A DNA stretch of 64,000 bases from Alphaproteobacteria bacterium. Its GTDB lineage: Bacteria > Pseudomonadota > Alphaproteobacteria > Bin95. The notes beneath the pieces are model-generated. The model had not been told where the DNA came from and did no database searches. It saw nothing but the letters and a program-made list of their open reading frames with translations. Shown here one piece after another: positions 5,060 through 47,967 of the stretch (positions are counted from its first letter, which is position 1; each line of letters begins with the position of its first letter). The DNA is taken from assembly GCA_963665325.3 (NCBI GenBank), contig OZ224045.1, forward strand, positions 96,001 through 160,000, written 5' to 3'. The translations under genes and the position numbers were made by a program.

Positions 5060-6271
5060 TCACGCGACCGCGCCGGAAGCCCTCAGAGCGGCGACGTCTT
5101 CCGGCGTACGGCCCAACTCGGCAAGAATCTCGTCGGTGTGCTGCCCCGTTTCGGGAGCCGGGCCGGGTGCGGTCTTTTCCTCTCCCTCGACCCAGACGGG
5201 CGCGGCGACCGTGTGGCTCGAAAGGCCGGACGGGTCCTCGTGGGGAACGACGATTTCCGCAGCGTGCATCTGCGGGTCGTCCGGAATGTCCTCGGTCTTC
5301 CCGACGACGCCGAATGCCAGCCCCTCCGCCTCCAGCCGTTCCCGCCAGACGGGCCAGGGCTCGCGGATGAAGACCTCGTCCAGAACCGCGATCAGCTCGC
5401 GGGCATGGCGGTGCCGGGCCGGCTTCTCGGCGAAGCGCGGGTCCGTGCCGAGGTCGGGCCGATCGAGCGCCCGCAGCAGGTTGGGCCACTGCTTGTCCTC
5501 GTTGACGAGGCTCAGAATGAACCAGCGCCCGTCCGCGCAGCGGTAATGATTGGCCACGCCCGTCGCCCAGTTCTCGCGCTTCGGCCGGGTCGGGATATCG
5601 AGCCCGCAAAGCGCCGCCTGGGCGTAGAACGCATTGAACCAGACGCCGTTCGCCATGAGATTGGTGTGCGCCTTGCCGCCTTTGCCCGTCATCTGGCGGC
5701 GGTAGAGCGCCATCATCACGGACGCGAACAGCGCCACGCCAGTGGGATGGTCCCCCATGCCAGGAAGCGAACGGGCCGGAGAACCCTCCGGGTCGGGGCG
5801 CACGAGGTCCATCAGTCCCGTGCGCGCCCAGAGCGCCGTCGAATCGAAGCCGGTCTTGCCGGCTTCCGGCCCGGCCTCGCCATAGGCCGACAACGAGGCG
5901 TAGATCAGCCGGTCGTTGAGCGGCGCGATGTCCTCGTAGCGCAGCTTGAGCTGTTCGCGCACACGCGGCGGATAGTTGGTGATGAACACATCGGCCGTCG
6001 AAGCCAGCTCCCGCAGGACAGCGCGCCCGGCCTCCTGTCGCAGATCGAGCGCAAGCCCCCGCTTCGAGCGGTTGTCCACCATCCAGGAATAGTCCACATG
6101 GGACGAGGGGAAGCCCGGAAACGCCGACAGTCCGCGATAGGAATCGCCCGTCGGCGGCTCGACCTTGATAACGTCCGCTCCGAAGTCGGCGAGCATGGTC
6201 GCCGCCACCGGAGCTGCGATGAAGCTGGCCACATCGAGGACCTTGAGGCCCGCGAAAAGAGACTCCGCCAT
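5060..6271 (-). CDS. CoA-transferase family III (CaiB/BaiF)
   Basis: LKVLD..FIAAP, LADFGADVIKVEPPTGD, NRSKR, APETGQHTDEIL; ATG at 6271 preceded by GGAGG. Confidence 0.92.
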   Translation of the reverse strand: MAESLFAGLKVLDVASFIAAPVAATMLADFGADVIKVEPPTGDSYRGLSAFPGFPSSHVDYSWMVDNRSKRGLALDLRQEAGRAVLRELASTADVFITNYPPRVREQLKLRYEDIAPLNDRLIYASLSAYGEAGPEAGKTGFDSTALWARTGLMDLVRPDPEGSPARSLPGMGDHPTGVALFASVMMALYRRQMTGKGGKAHTNLMANGVWFNAFYAQAALCGLDIPTRPKRENWATGVANHYRCADGRWFILSLVNEDKQWPNLLRALDRPDLGTDPRFAEKPARHRHARELIAVLDEVFIREPWPVWRERLEAEGLAFGVVGKTEDIPDDPQMHAAEIVVPHEDPSGLSSHTVAAPVWVEGEEKTAPGPAPETGQHTDEILAELGRTPEDVAALRASGAVA

Positions 6272-6729: not shown

Positions 6730-7902
6730 TCAAGACCTGCGGGGCCGTTCCGCGGATGGAATGAAGGCGATGGCGCAAGCCGCCGCGGCGGCGCAAAGGG
6801 CAACGGCAAAGAACGGCCACTCGTAGCTGCCGAGTTCATCATAGGCCAGACCCGCCAGCGGCGGACCGAAGAGGGTGCCGATGCCGACGCTCGAATAGAG
6901 CAGCCCGATAAGCGCGCCTACGGAGCGCAGCCCGAACAGGTCCGCCGTTACCGACGGCGCAAGCGCGACAAAGCCGCCATAGCAGAGGCCGAATATGGCG
7001 GCCACGGCCGCCAGATGCCAGAACGGTCCGGCCAGCATCCAAGCCGCCAGTGCGGCGCCCATGCCGGCGTAAAGCAGCGACAGGCAGAGCTTTCGTCCGA
7101 TGCGGTCGGCTATCGGTGCCAGGACAAACCGTCCCACCGTACTGCCGACGCCCACAAGGGGAATCAGCGCGTTCGCTTCGACCACGGAAAAGCCCCGGTC
7201 GAGCGCGTGGGGGACCGCATGCACGAAAGGGATGAAAATGCCAAAGGCGAGCACCAGGGTTGCCGCGTAGAGAATCCAGAATGTGCGGCTGGACAGCGCC
7301 TCGCTGACGGTGAAGCCCGACAGTGCGGGACCGGAAGCCGCTCCGGTCGGCGGCGCGGTTACGAAATGCGCGGCGCCACCCCCGAGCACCAGGACGCCGA
7401 GCGCTAGTGCAAGATAGGCGAAGCGCCAGTCGGCGGCCTCGATCAGAACCACGGCAATGAGCGGCGCCACAAGCGTTCCCACACCGATGCCGGCAACGGC
7501 GAAACCGGAGGCCATGCCCCGCTGCGTCGTGAACCATCGCTGTACGGCGCCCACTGCGGGCACATAGGCAAGCCCGACTCCGAACCCGACACCGAGCCCG
7601 TATCCCAGGCAGATCTGCCAGAGTGTAGTCGCATGGGCAGCGAAGAGGAGGCCGGCGCCGGCCACGACCATGCCTGCGATACACAGTTCGCGCGGCCCCA
7701 AGACATCGGCGATCCGGCCGGAGATGGCGCCGAAGCCGAAATAGAGAAACGCCGCCAGCGAAAAGACCAGGCTCGTCTCAGCTCGGGTCGCTCCGAACTC
7801 GCGCTCAAGCGAGGGAAAGAAAGTCGAGAAGGTATAGGCAGCACCGAATCCGACGAACAGGACGAGGAAGGTCGCCCCGACGACGCCCCAGCCGCCTCTC
7901 AC
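6730..7902 (-). CDS. MFS transporter (monocarboxylate/OFA-like)
   Basis: About 12 hydrophobic segments, GRIADVLGPR and IADRIGRK motif A; likely GTG start at 7902 overlapping the upstream TGA. Confidence 0.88.
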   Translation of the reverse strand: MRGGWGVVGATFLVLFVGFGAAYTFSTFFPSLEREFGATRAETSLVFSLAAFLYFGFGAISGRIADVLGPRELCIAGMVVAGAGLLFAAHATTLWQICLGYGLGVGFGVGLAYVPAVGAVQRWFTTQRGMASGFAVAGIGVGTLVAPLIAVVLIEAADWRFAYLALALGVLVLGGGAAHFVTAPPTGAASGPALSGFTVSEALSSRTFWILYAATLVLAFGIFIPFVHAVPHALDRGFSVVEANALIPLVGVGSTVGRFVLAPIADRIGRKLCLSLLYAGMGAALAAWMLAGPFWHLAAVAAIFGLCYGGFVALAPSVTADLFGLRSVGALIGLLYSSVGIGTLFGPPLAGLAYDELGSYEWPFFAVALCAAAAACAIAFIPSAERPRRS

Positions 7903-44649: not shown

Positions 44650-46200
44650 TCAGGGGCGGATGGCGAAGCGGGAGGGGCCGCATTGCGTCTCCAGCCGCTG
44701 CTGGTTCCATTCGATCCATTCGCACAGCATGGCGCGGGTCTCGCAGGGGTCGATGAGTTCGTGCATGGAGAAACTTTCCGCGCGCCGCGCCGGAGAGAGC
44801 GTCGCCGCCATGCGCGCCTCGATCTCGGCGCGTTTCGCCTCGGGGTCCTCAGCGGCGGCGATCTCGCGTCCGAAGGCGACCGCGACTCCGCCTTCGAGCG
44901 GCAGCGTGCCCATTTCGGCCGAGGGCCAGCCGAGGACATAGGCGCCGGGGCCGTAATGCGCCGCCTGGGCGACGCCGTACGACTTGCGCACGACGATCGA
45001 GGCCCAGGGCGACCGGCAGGTTGCCGCCGCCAGCACGGCGGACGTGCCGGCCCGGATGGCGCCCTCCTGCTCTGCCTGGCTGCCGATCATGAAGCCCGGC
45101 TCGTCCACGAAGCTGACGATCGGCAGGTTGAAGGTTTCGCAGAACTCGATGAAGCGCCGCGCCTTGCGCGCGCCGTCCGCGGTCATGGCGCCGGCATAGA
45201 AGCGGGAATCGTTGGAAAAGATACCGACGGGATAGCCATTCAGCCGCGCGAGCATGGTCACCTGGCCGGGCCCGTACTGGCGCGACATCTCGAAGACGGA
45301 GCCTCGATCCACGATCATGTCGATGGCGCGGCGCATGTTGAAAAACTTGCGCCGGTTTTCCGGCACGATGCTGCGCAGCGCCTCGTCGGCGCGGGCCGGG
45401 TCGTCGTCCGTCTCGGTGCGGGCCGGGACCTGCCAGACGTTTTGCGGCAGGTACGAAAGGAAGCGCCGGATCTGCGCGAGCGCGTCCGCTTCGTCCTCGG
45501 CGATATTGTCGATGGCGCCGCTTCTTGCATGGACCTGGGCGCCGCCCAGCTCTTCCTTGGTCACGTCTTCGCCGAGGGCCCGCTTGACGACCGCCGGACC
45601 GGCAATCAGCACCTGGGCCGTTTCCTTCGTCATCACCGCGAAATGCGCCGCGACAAGCCGGGAGGCCGGCAGGCCCGCGACCGGGCCCAGCGCCGCCGTC
45701 GCCACCGGCACCGCGCCCATGCACTCGGCCACCGAGGCAAAGCGGCGCGGCGCATGCGGGGGTTCGCCGACCGGGCCGCCGCCGCCGGCGCCGGTGACGC
45801 TGCCGCCGCCGCCCTCATGCAGGCGGACCAGCGGCACGCGGTATTGCAGGGCCAGGTCCTCGATATAGACGCTCTTGCGCAGGCCCGCCGCATTCGGCGA
45901 ACCGCCCCGCACGGTGAAGTCCTCGCCGCCGACCACTGCGAGCCGTCCGTCGATACGGCCCATGCCGACTATGAAATTGGCGGGCGTGATGCTCTTGAGC
46001 GTCCCGTCCGCATTGCGCTCGACCCCGCCCGCACCGCGCCCATGCTCGCGGAAACTGCCCGGATCGACCAGTCCGTCGATGCGTTCGCGGACGGTCAGCC
46101 GCCCCTGCGCATGCTGGCGGGCCACCGCCTCCGCGCCGCCCTGTTCCAGCGCCGCCTTGCGCTTGGCGTGAATATCCTCGATCTCGCGGGACCAGCCCAT
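44650..46200 (-). CDS. Acyl-CoA carboxylase, carboxyltransferase (beta) subunit
   Basis: GRLTVRERIDGLVDPGSF, DFTVRGGS, EELGG, FVDEPGF, RKSYG. Confidence 0.92.
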   Translation of the reverse strand: MGWSREIEDIHAKRKAALEQGGAEAVARQHAQGRLTVRERIDGLVDPGSFREHGRGAGGVERNADGTLKSITPANFIVGMGRIDGRLAVVGGEDFTVRGGSPNAAGLRKSVYIEDLALQYRVPLVRLHEGGGGSVTGAGGGGPVGEPPHAPRRFASVAECMGAVPVATAALGPVAGLPASRLVAAHFAVMTKETAQVLIAGPAVVKRALGEDVTKEELGGAQVHARSGAIDNIAEDEADALAQIRRFLSYLPQNVWQVPARTETDDDPARADEALRSIVPENRRKFFNMRRAIDMIVDRGSVFEMSRQYGPGQVTMLARLNGYPVGIFSNDSRFYAGAMTADGARKARRFIEFCETFNLPIVSFVDEPGFMIGSQAEQEGAIRAGTSAVLAAATCRSPWASIVVRKSYGVAQAAHYGPGAYVLGWPSAEMGTLPLEGGVAVAFGREIAAAEDPEAKRAEIEARMAATLSPARRAESFSMHELIDPCETRAMLCEWIEWNQQRLETQCGPSRFAIRP

Positions 46201-46273
46201 CGATCCATCCTTGCGTTTTGGGGCTTATATACATGACACGGCCGAAGGAGGGCTTGTTCGAATTCGGTCCGTT

Positions 46274-46370
46274 ATGCCCTCTTCCCGTCATGCCCGGACT
46301 TGTTCCGGGCATCTCTCTCGGGCCGGTCGCAGCGGCGGAAATGGATGGCCGGAACAGGTCCGGCCATGAC
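46274..46370. repeat. REPIN-like unit 1: inverted pair of CGTC-tagged hairpins
   Basis: CGTC-ATGCCCGGA-CTTGT-TCCGGGCAT (46286-46312) ... ATGGCCGGA-ACAGG-TCCGGCCAT-GAC (46345-46370). Confidence 0.93.
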
Positions 46371-46500
46371 CAAAGGGAAGGGGACGGAAGACGCCGCGTG
46401 CCTCCGGAACCTCCGCCAGACTCCCGTTCGGCATCGCCCGATAGCCAGCCCGGACAGCAATGGGCTTGTTCCGGGCATCCACAGGTTGCAGCATGGCCGC

Positions 46501-46788
46501 ATGAGCGGGGGCTGGGTCTATATCATGACCAATCGACCCTACGGCACGCTCTATCTCGGCGTGACCGGCAATATCGCGCGCCGGGCTTGGGAACACCGCG
46601 AAGGCGTTAGTGAAGGGTTCACCAGGCGGTACGGTCTCAAGCGGCTCGTCTTCGCGGAACGCCACGAAGACATCCGTTCCGCCATCCAGCGGGAAAAGAC
46701 CATGAAGCACTGGCCGCGCGCATGGAAGATCAACCTCATCCTCCGGCGAAACCCCGATTGGAACGACCTTTACGAGACCCTGCAGTAA
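46501..46788 (+). CDS. Small stand-alone GIY-YIG nuclease (Ssn-like)
   Basis: WVYIMTN..GTLYLGVT..IARRAWEH, AIQREKTMK, WPRAWKINLI..NPDW.DL; 95 aa from ATG 46501. Confidence 0.92.
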   Translation: MSGGWVYIMTNRPYGTLYLGVTGNIARRAWEHREGVSEGFTRRYGLKRLVFAERHEDIRSAIQREKTMKHWPRAWKINLILRRNPDWNDLYETLQ

Positions 46789-46838
46789 GCTGCCTGTCGG
46801 TCGCGGATGCCACGATCGGGTCCGTTCCTCTTCCCGTC

Positions 46839-46935
46839 ATGCCCTCTTCCCGTCATGCCCGGACTTGTTCCGGGCATCTCGCTCGGGGCCATCGCGGCGG
46901 CGGAAGTGGATGGCCGGAACAAGTCCGGCCATGAC
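46839..46935. repeat. REPIN-like unit 2, direct repeat of unit 1
   Basis: 97 bp, 7 mismatches to 46274-46370 by hand alignment, none in the hairpin stems. Confidence 0.93.
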
Positions 46936-47006
46936 GGAAGGGGGCGTCCGGGCATGACGGAGGGGACGTTCGGCAATGAGGGGGCGGGGGGTCGGGGCGC
47001 CAGGCG

Positions 47007-47516
47007 TCAATCGGTGCGCTCGATCGCGGAGCGCAGCATTGCGAGGGCGCGTTCGACGGCGGCGCGGCGTATCTCCGCGCGGTTGCCGTCGAGATTGTGC
47101 CTCAAGATCACGGTATCGCCCCCGGCGGACGCGACTGCCAGCCAGACGGTGCCGACCGGCTTTTCAGCAGAACCGCCCCCCGGGCCGGCCACGCCCGTCA
47201 CCGCGACGGCAAGGTCTGCGTCCCGACCGGCGCGGGCGAGCGCGCCTGCGGCCATTTCCTGCGCCGTTTCGCCGCTGACCGCGCCGTGGGCGGCGAGGGT
47301 TTCGGCACTGACGCCCAGCAGTTCCTGCTTGGCTTCGTTGGAATAGGTGACGAAGCCGCGCCCGACGACATCGGAGGATCCCGGTATCTCGGTCAACAGG
47401 GAGGCGATGAGGCCGCCGGTGCAGGATTCGGCAGTGGTCAGCCTCAGTCCCTTCGCGCGGCAGGACTCGAGAAGGCCTTTGGCCGCATCCAGCAGTTCAT
47501 CCGAAAAGAACGCCAT
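47007..47516 (-). CDS. cinA: CinA family protein (NMN amidohydrolase domain)
   Basis: TAESCTGG, PGSS, YSNEAK, GAVS, TGVAGPGG, KPVGTV. Confidence 0.93.
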   Translation of the reverse strand: MAFFSDELLDAAKGLLESCRAKGLRLTTAESCTGGLIASLLTEIPGSSDVVGRGFVTYSNEAKQELLGVSAETLAAHGAVSGETAQEMAAGALARAGRDADLAVAVTGVAGPGGGSAEKPVGTVWLAVASAGGDTVILRHNLDGNRAEIRRAAVERALAMLRSAIERTD

Positions 47517-47967
47517 GTCCCAGCCCCCAGTCAGCAAGGTGAAGCAGTGCGGCCGCGCAGGCCGCCGCGGCCACGTCGTCGGCCATTACGCCCGGCCCTC
47601 CGGCGACCTTCCGCTCGATCCATCCTATCGGCGGCGGCTTGAGGATGTCGAAAAGGCGGAAAGCGGCAAAGCCGAAGCCGTATGCCAGGGGATCGAGCGG
47701 CAGGGTGGCCAGCACCAGCCATTGCCCCACGACTTCATCGACCACGACCGCGCTGGAGTCACGTTCGCCCGACTCCCGTTCGTACTGCGCGGCCGCGCGG
47801 CAGCCGACGATGCCGACCAGCACGGCCGCAGCCCCCAGCGCCCAGGGCCCGCCCGCCCAGACAATCGCCCAGGCCGGGGGCAGGGCGGCGAGCGAAGCCC
47901 AGCTGCCCGGCGCCGCCGGAAGACGACCCAGCCCGAAAACGGTGGCGACGGGAAGCTCCCACCTCAC
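47497..47967 (-). CDS. pgpA: Phosphatidylglycerophosphatase A
   Basis: APGSWAS, VVDEVVGQ, FRLFDILKP, GVMADD. Confidence 0.94.
   Translation of the reverse strand: MRWELPVATVFGLGRLPAAPGSWASLAALPPAWAIVWAGGPWALGAAAVLVGIVGCRAAAQYERESGERDSSAVVVDEVVGQWLVLATLPLDPLAYGFGFAAFRLFDILKPPPIGWIERKVAGGPGVMADDVAAAACAAALLHLADWGLGHGVLFG

Follow-up and report, generated by a model that had tools for sequence, protein, structure and literature searches.

In the RAYT/REP and REPIN systems a Y1 HUH transposase is associated with repetitive extragenic palindromes (REPs), and the intergenic mosaic elements of Neisseria are assembled from dRS3-bounded repeat modules. We describe here an alphaproteobacterial locus in which a gene for a small GIY-YIG nuclease, ssn, is bracketed by a directly repeated paired-hairpin unit. 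The locus forms part of a 64,000-nt stretch of DNA that was analysed as a whole (the window; C1:96001-160000 of the 5.58-Mb, five-contig, 67% G+C genome studied, here G000), and positions without a contig prefix refer to this window. Our analysis indicates that the gene very probably encodes an Ssn-family nuclease, surrounded by a small mosaic of the hairpins that this nuclease would recognise.

As set out in the paper that describes it, on which all statements about published Ssn systems below draw, the Ssn family comprises single-domain GIY-YIG proteins of ~94 amino acids (aa), has Neisseria meningitidis (Nm) SsnA as its type member and corresponds to CDD cd10448 (Chenal et al., Nat Commun 2025, PMC11893778). 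Ssn proteins are site-specific endonucleases that bind a tagged hairpin (NTS, or more generally an Ssn-related motif, SRM) exclusively in single-stranded DNA (ssDNA); cleavage falls a few nucleotides upstream of the hairpin, on one strand only, with the three nucleotides before the palindrome weighing most for cutting and the C after the palindrome for binding (PMC11893778). The association of gene and hairpin is reported statistically and cleavage is shown for four Ssn/hairpin pairs; the homology criterion applied is E < 1e-10 to Nm SsnA, and the relation between dRS3 and NTS is also described (PMC11893778). In the collection that we searched, the literature yielded no paper on bacterial Ssn nucleases beyond this one.

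A nuclease gene between paired hairpins

The original prediction for this DNA proposed a small GIY-YIG open reading frame of 95 aa flanked by two direct paired-hairpin units, and this architecture is borne out by our analysis (Table 1). The units had been described as 97 nt long (46274-46370 and 46839-46935) with 7 mismatches that leave the stems untouched. Base comparison agrees, and places the differences at 46316, 46323, 46325, 46326, 46331, 46341 and 46357; six of the seven fall in the 32-nt spacer between the two hairpins of a unit, the other lies in the loop of hairpin B, and the stems have none. A repeat search shows that the direct repeat is really 109 nt long, with 91% identity between the copies and inverted-repeat arms inside each of them.

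Hairpin A of each unit has a CGTC tag on the plus strand, followed by a 9-bp stem (ATGCCCGGA/TCCGGGCAT) with the loop CTTGT, and then a C. Hairpin B, on the far side of the spacer, has the stem ATGGCCGGA/TCCGGCCAT followed by GAC(G), which puts its tag on the minus strand. The two stems differ by a double change from C:G to G:C at stem position 4, in line with the compensatory change that had been proposed. The CGTC/GAC tags that had been claimed are likewise present, except that the tag of hairpin B in unit 1 reads GGTC, not CGTC (GACC on the plus strand). As ssDNA, each unit folds well below its shuffled counterparts (z about -6).

Family placement of the nuclease

The ssn product matches a single Pfam family, PF01541 (GIY-YIG; E 7.3e-11, spanning residues 3-77 when the 94-aa translation of 46504-46788 is the query), and a search of NCBIfam with the protein returned no family. 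Its AlphaFold model is a compact single domain (pLDDT 91.4), the best fold matches of which are all GIY-YIG structures, namely UPF0213, Slx1 and the N-terminal domain of UvrC. Residues Y7, Y18, R28, H32, E65 and N84 are kept in all 19 rows of an alignment of homologues, and Y7, Y18 and E65 correspond to Y6, Y17 and E64, which were mutated in Nm SsnA (PMC11893778).

Since the closest solved structures belong to UPF0213, the protein could instead be a DNA-damage-response nuclease of the YhbQ/UPF0213 type without sequence specificity. The two are of similar size, and the UPF0213 protein BH0048 is both the best sequence match among solved structures (E 0.0015) and the top fold match of the model (E 8.5e-4); however, the copy of the PDB that was searched has no Ssn structure, so that UPF0213 ranks first because no other small GIY-YIG protein of known structure is closer. 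Sequence comparison separates the two families clearly, with Ssn-like homologues 47-63% identical to the G000 protein (E 1e-28 to 1e-42) and E. coli YhbQ only 25% identical (E 2e-5). A maximum-likelihood tree places the 20 Ssn-like rows in one group, parted by a long branch of 3.27 (support 85/86, values that are rough because the bootstrap had not fully settled) from YhbQ and from a second small GIY-YIG protein of G000. In addition, the G000 protein carries the Ssn-specific C-terminal motif W-R-x-WK-x-x-LI-x-x-x-N-x-x-W-x-DL. A YhbQ/UPF0213-type identity is therefore extremely improbable, and the assignment to the Ssn-type class made in the original prediction is supported by the tree, by the identities and by the hairpin motif.

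The same conclusion can be approached from the Neisseria-type repeat. The canonical NTS pattern was run on 401 genomes of the phylum and matched 90 of them, the reversed control matching none. Five genomes with 19 to 558 NTS matches were searched with the G000 protein, and all five hold homologues (E 4e-16 to 1e-34). Nine of these loci were read, and in seven of them canonical NTS hairpins bracket the homologue, plus-tagged upstream and minus-tagged downstream. The intact NTS-flanked homologues (in G075, G122, G106 and G228) are 47-53% identical to the G000 protein (E 1e-24 to 1e-31); the seventh NTS-flanked homologue, in G154, is interrupted by a stop codon. Across 41 related genomes the protein was matched in 18, among them 6 of the 16 congeners of G000.

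Within G000 itself, a genome search found one close copy of ssn. PF01541 also matches a different small protein encoded on C3 and two longer open reading frames, of 661 aa on C1 and 301 aa on C5. The C3 gene (C3:359128-359343, L025) scores 58 bits on PF01541, lies in a 172-aa open frame and encodes a protein 31% identical to the ssn product; this is the second small GIY-YIG protein of the tree, outside the Ssn group and near YhbQ.

The hairpin and its pairing with the nuclease

The published SRM pattern, HGTCWYN(0-2)YYVSBRHN(0-5)WNVSBRGN(0-2)RNCYNB (PMC11893778), matches hairpin A on both sides of the gene (46286-46316 and 46851-46881; C1:142286 and C1:142851). It is the CC-variant hairpin A that fits the strict pattern, with no match at the GG-variant hairpin B, and the pattern has 61 matches genome-wide in G000, a raw count taken without a shuffle control. 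The G000 hairpin retains the two elements that are critical in the published system, GTC ahead of the stem and C behind it (PMC11893778).

Hairpins also flank the homologues. GTC-tagged perfect stems of at least 8 bp occur within 700 nt of the gene at 18 of 20 loci (10 of 11 in a set from related genomes and 8 of 9 in NTS-rich genomes), set against a background of 0.05 per 1.4 kb in G000, where 569 kb contained 21 hairpins of this kind. Among these loci there are at least 13 different stem sequences. Stem sequence thus changes along with the protein lineage, and tag and trailing C are constant, as expected of a nuclease and its target. From sequence, it is plausible that the G000 Ssn has its own target stem, unlike NTS.

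These results bear on the idea that the units are generic intergenic repeats of a REP-like or MITE-like kind, structural or regulatory, and that the gene landed between two of them with no functional tie. Such repeats would be expected to look much as these do in some respects: the units are intergenic at every copy checked in G000, they are abundant in genomes without the gene, and two other tagged families occur, in small numbers, in 16 of the 17 genus genomes regardless of Ssn type. They would not, however, be expected to adjoin the gene at 18 of 20 homologue loci from several families and classes when the background is so low, nor would their stems be expected to change with the protein lineage around a constant GTC tag and trailing C. 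Neither terminator-like nor promoter-like sites nor any Rfam family were found at the locus (miRNA hairpin models scored far below their gathering scores), and both the statistical association and the cleavage of four pairs have been reported (PMC11893778). We consider generic repeats to be a very unlikely explanation. The G000 protein and its hairpin are one more Ssn pair, of an already published family, with a stem distinct from that of NTS.

At residue 81 (window 46741-46743) the G000 protein has a LIL motif, and its three carriers all pair with the ATGSCCGGA stem; residue 81 may be a specificity position.

Table 1. Positions of the insert, its hairpins and genes in the window, and of further paired units in G000
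Feature	Position	Strand	Basis or remark
Left neighbour, carboxyltransferase gene (its start faces the insert)	44650-46200	-	Pfam
Whole insert, about 774 nt	46225..46998	.	Relative to the empty site of congeners
Paired-hairpin unit 1	46269..46377	+	Repeat search and base reading; includes degenerate tag/partial arm 46270-46278
Unit 1 hairpin A	tag 46286-46289, stem 46290-46298 / 46304-46312, C 46313	+	Matches published SRM pattern
Unit 1 hairpin B	stem 46345-46353 / 46359-46367, tag 46368-46371 (GGTC)	tag on -	
Leader module, unit 1 to proximal hairpin relic, ~85 nt	46378..46461	+	By-eye comparison, not quantified
3' half hairpin (loop, 3' arm, C)	46462..46479	+	Relic of canonical gene-proximal tagged hairpin
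ssn gene, single-domain GIY-YIG nuclease, 95 aa	46501..46788 (ATG 46501, TAA 46788)	+	
Tandem partial copy: linker, CGTC tag, first 5 nt of 5' arm	46827..46843	+	Directly precedes unit 2 hairpin A
Paired-hairpin unit 2	46834..46942	+	Repeat search and base reading
Unit 2 hairpin A	tag 46851-46854, hairpin 46855-46877	+	
Unit 2 hairpin B	46910-46932, tag 46933-46936 (CGTC)	tag on -	
Two 5' half hairpins (tag and 5' arm)	46946-46960 exact, 46966-46980 degenerate	-	Upstream of hairpin B in minus sense
Right neighbour, CinA-family gene (its stop faces the insert)	47007-47537	-	Pfam
Full paired unit elsewhere in G000	C4:457090-457183		Pattern search
Full paired unit elsewhere in G000	C5:46610-46695		Pattern search
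Full paired unit elsewhere in G000	C5:55965-56050		Pattern search
Partial paired unit in G000	C5:45565-45637		Pattern search

The repeat within the genome

The repeat is found beyond the locus. A genome-wide search with the tagged-hairpin pattern, allowing one mismatch, gave 17 matches at about 11 places in G000, and none of the 17 genus genomes matched the reversed pattern. Three of these places hold further full paired units and another holds a partial unit (Table 1). The doublet at C4:457090, compared with the congeners for the exact boundaries of a solo unit, lies at a break of synteny and yielded no clean empty site. Two units on C5 (L043 3612-13050) enclose 9.4 kb that contain oligopeptide-type ABC transporter genes, an amidase gene and a gene for a metallo-beta-lactamase-fold protein; a comparable repeat-genes-repeat layout is described around Neisseria genes (PMC11893778).

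Two more GTC-tagged hairpin families, with the stems ACCCCGGA and GTCCCGGA and the loop CTTGA, together have 11 matches in G000, including those at C1:437025, 1484865, 1485321 and 1489059, C4:512333, 512438, 735100 and 735166, and C3:955950. They have 1-39 matches in 15 of the 16 congeners, whichever Ssn type is present. One of the two flanks the second-type ssn of G009 (L008), and G000 is without a second-type gene.

A genome-wide count of the half hairpin by a 10-mer returned 178 matches, mostly in coding sequence of this GC-rich genome, and was discarded. The same 10-mer is contained in an unrelated repeat with about 27 near-identical copies on four contigs (for example at C1:506212, 705617, 1293623 and 1629475, C3:177035 and C4:214208), which is probably an insertion sequence.

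Insertion states across the genus

We compared the 2.8 kb around the locus across 17 genomes of the genus. The two genes that flank the insert in G000 (Table 1) sit next to each other in 10 of the 17 (G001, G002, G003, G005, G006, G009, G010, G014, G015 and G016), 2-44 nt apart by the match coordinates, and the anchors on either side, 807 nt apart in G000, are about 29 nt apart in the six congeners read base by base. G004, G007 and G012, in which the flanks are on different contigs or in different places, were assigned no site state. The same site is filled in the same orientation in G011, which is 89% identical to G000 over the 2.8 kb. In G010 the site is empty and a gene 94% identical to ssn is on another contig. 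The cassette thus belongs to the accessory genome: the G000/G011 lineage acquired it at a single site, and in G010 it is present elsewhere.

Repeat-only inserts of 334 and 518 nt occupy the same site in G008 and G013, respectively. Because their left junction is unlike that of G000 and G011, the comparison suggests that this short intergenic site was hit independently in the two pairs of genomes. The sequence (T/C)(T/C)GGGGC at both ends of the insert is a possible duplication of 5-7 nt, in G-rich DNA where it may be due to chance.

In one public sequencing run (X3) a single contig joins 46211 to 47035, skipping 823 nt, at a depth of 5.8; the shorter side of the joint is 30 letters long and the likeness threshold was 90%. 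This contig may represent the empty-site form from a related organism in a mixed sample. Joints from the end of a unit to the start of a unit, with 27 letters between them, were considered as circles and rejected, being most simply tandem units at other loci. Neither the contig nor these joints are counted here as evidence of excision or deletion.

Hairpin relics and shuffled modules

The half hairpin that had been proposed just before the ATG is present on reading the sequence. Its intact counterpart, a gene-proximal tagged hairpin, stands about 25 nt before the start codon in G010. The leader module that runs up to this relic in the window is found reversed, beside hairpin halves, in the G013 insert (L018), in G010 (L040, about 7700-7816) and at C1:433447 in G000, and it looks as if modules between hairpins are able to invert or be reshuffled.

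Half hairpins also occur as arrays. The longest precedes the full hairpin upstream of the gene in G010 (L040, G010:C276 about 6090-6260) and consists of six tandem copies of linker, tag and 5' arm with a period of about 24-26 nt; shorter, decaying arrays are present in the window (46827-46843 and 46946-46980), in the G008 insert (L021), in G011 and in G013. Such arrays may have been left behind by recurrent cycles of breakage and repair at the hairpin and, taken with the two orientations of the leader, their presence suggests breakage or recombination at the hairpins.

Hairpins without the nuclease

The number of hairpins in a genome does not track the presence of the nuclease. Among the genomes that have this Ssn type, tagged-hairpin matches number 17 in G000, 20 in G011 and 214 in G010. 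Where no Ssn-like gene was found they number 262 in G008, 138 in G004, 124 in G012, 76 in G015, 74 in G013, 49 in G006 and 4 in G002, and G005, which has a distant GIY-YIG gene only, has 16. The genomes with a second Ssn type (55-59% identity) have 30 (G007), 1 (G009) and 0 (G016), and those with neither have none (G001, G003 and G014).

An Ssn-like gene is absent from G004, G006, G008, G012, G013 and G015 by both a single-protein search and a profile of 19 homologues, the latter reaching 1e-46 in three positive-control genomes. The assemblies of G008, G012 and G013 have 1-5 contigs; those of G004 and G015 are fragmented, with 97% and 93% completeness. The hairpins therefore outlive the nuclease, and their copy number does not follow its presence. 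The repeats persist, and perhaps spread, without a resident nuclease, and the six hairpin-rich congeners that lack an Ssn gene argue against any need for the nuclease to keep or spread them. In the wider phylum sample, G154 has the most canonical NTS matches (558), and its sole ssn (L034/L038, G154:C87) is broken by a TAG codon and was detected in two pieces.

We looked for a transposase of the RAYT type that could act in its place. PF01797, the Y1 transposase family, has no match in G000 or in any repeat-bearing congener among the 17 genus genomes searched, the sole match being a fragment in G016, which has 0 hairpins; the control search was positive in 6 of 14 control genomes. A RAYT was accordingly rejected as the mobiliser, PF01797 being absent from the repeat-bearing genomes of the genus.

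The original prediction had also raised the possibility of a mobile unit that spreads the repeats without a transposase. The insertion itself is upheld by the comparison of filled and empty sites, while the part assigned to the nuclease is opposed by the six hairpin-rich congeners without its gene. In its full form, the proposal would make the cassette an autonomous mobile element in which Ssn cuts the tagged hairpins, excises or copies the segments between them and so mobilises the units much as a RAYT does REPINs, an idea raised as such in the Discussion of PMC11893778. A number of our observations fit it. The inverted tagged hairpins around a single open reading frame give the locus the layout of an insertion sequence, the site is filled in some genomes of the genus and empty in others, and the gene is at another locus in G010. 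The ~29-nt site has been hit at least twice, with differing junctions in G000/G011 and G008/G013, the ends of the insert may carry a short duplication, and no repeat-bearing genome of the genus has a Y1 transposase. Self-mobilisation would explain the two insertions in one 29-nt site, the G010 locus and the missing Y1 transposase together.

These points are difficult to reconcile with the distribution of the gene. G004, G006, G008, G012, G013 and G015, with 49-262 hairpin matches, have no Ssn-like gene, two of the three carriers of this Ssn type hold only 17 and 20 matches, and the sole ssn of NTS-rich G154 is broken. The putative duplication may be a coincidence, given the G-rich sequence around it. 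The public runs, searched as Logan contigs of mixed samples, yielded no excised or circular form, though rare forms are beyond the reach of such data. There is also a chemical difficulty. To our knowledge, GIY-YIG nucleases hydrolyse DNA without a covalent intermediate and lack a joining activity, so the joining step would need another factor. We thus judge an autonomous element to be unlikely. A self-mobilising GIY-YIG cassette, with excision or copying at the hairpins, orphan units left after loss of the gene and half-hairpin arrays as footprints of cutting and repair, is in our estimation similarly doubtful. In our view the most likely route of the cassette is a passive one, either homologous recombination between dispersed repeats or horizontal transfer, as opposed to Ssn-catalysed transposition.

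A proposed model for nuclease action

By analogy with the published system (PMC11893778), the tagged hairpin would fold when the DNA becomes single-stranded, whether in incoming transforming or conjugative DNA, in replication or in repair. The 95-aa monomer would then bind the stem and trailing C, and cleavage would fall a few nucleotides to the 5' side of the GTC tag, as with its homologues (PMC11893778). Each paired unit would present one cuttable hairpin per strand and, because one hairpin is tagged per strand in each unit, both strands would carry sites on both sides of the gene. The probable outcome would be shorter hairpin-bearing ssDNA that is less able to recombine. G000 has ComEC and DprA, which makes imported single strands a possible substrate; both are near-ubiquitous in the control genomes, so their presence has little weight.

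Several considerations count against the assignment of the locus as an Ssn nuclease among its own recognition hairpins. An altered palindrome that kept its structure abolished the activity of the Neisseria enzyme (PMC11893778), and the stem here differs from that of NTS, so that recognition of this stem is assumed from its co-location with the gene. Cleavage, strand specificity and cut position would follow those of the four assayed homologues, which are from other genera (PMC11893778). The likeness to SsnA was gauged through NTS-flanked stand-ins, not through N. meningitidis SsnA or CDD cd10448, and the LIE motif of 16 of the 19 aligned homologues is LIL in G000, G010 and G011. The gene-proximal upstream hairpin is degenerate in G000, and with only 17 hairpin matches in this genome any genome-wide role would be small. 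Finally, DNA uptake by the organism is putative.

Comparison with known systems

The genus is a compact natural experiment for a question left open in PMC11893778, namely whether Ssn spreads its repeats. It contains three genomes with this Ssn type, three with the second type, six that are hairpin-rich without Ssn, and four without this hairpin and this Ssn type, one of which (G016) has the second type. One short intergenic site is empty in some genomes, filled by the gene in others and occupied by repeats alone in two more. As the evidence stands, the repeats need no resident nuclease to persist, and the mobility of the cassette is unproven. The locus also adds a nuclease-hairpin pair with a non-NTS stem, which may interest collectors of ssDNA-cutting Ssn tools.

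With RAYT/REPIN loci the G000 locus shares dispersed intergenic tagged hairpins, often in inverted doublets about 60 nt apart, and a single small gene flanked by hairpins whose product recognises them (putatively, in G000) in ssDNA. The enzyme itself is different, being a GIY-YIG hydrolase and not a Y1 HUH transposase, the family of which (PF01797) is not in G000. As in the Neisseria mosaic elements, short spacer modules are bounded by tagged palindromes in a hairpin-spacer-hairpin mosaic; the sequences and the host lineage differ, and the modules of G000 include the nuclease gene and the ~85-nt leader that occurs in two orientations.

E. coli YhbQ and UPF0213 (PDB 1ZG2 and 1YWL) resemble the protein in being stand-alone GIY-YIG folds of ~100 aa and are its closest solved structures. 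They are set apart by the 25% identity of YhbQ, by its separate branch of the tree and by its want of the Ssn C-terminal motif.

The closest likeness is to Ssn/NTS (PMC11893778), from which the G000 locus nevertheless departs in several respects. The stem is ATGSCCGGA / TCCGGSCAT with a loop of 5, copy number is low, with 17 matches in the genome compared with the hundreds of copies reported for pathogenic Neisseria, and the gene is flanked by direct repeats of a two-hairpin unit, not by one inverted pair (PMC11893778). The proximal upstream hairpin has decayed, LIL takes the place of LIE, and Ssn activity and biological role are predicted. Common to both are a GIY-YIG protein of one domain and ~94 aa in which the catalytic Tyr, Tyr and Glu coincide, encoded by a gene bracketed by hairpins that run HGTC, 8-9 bp stem, short loop, stem and C, and that are also dispersed through the intergenic regions of the genome (PMC11893778).

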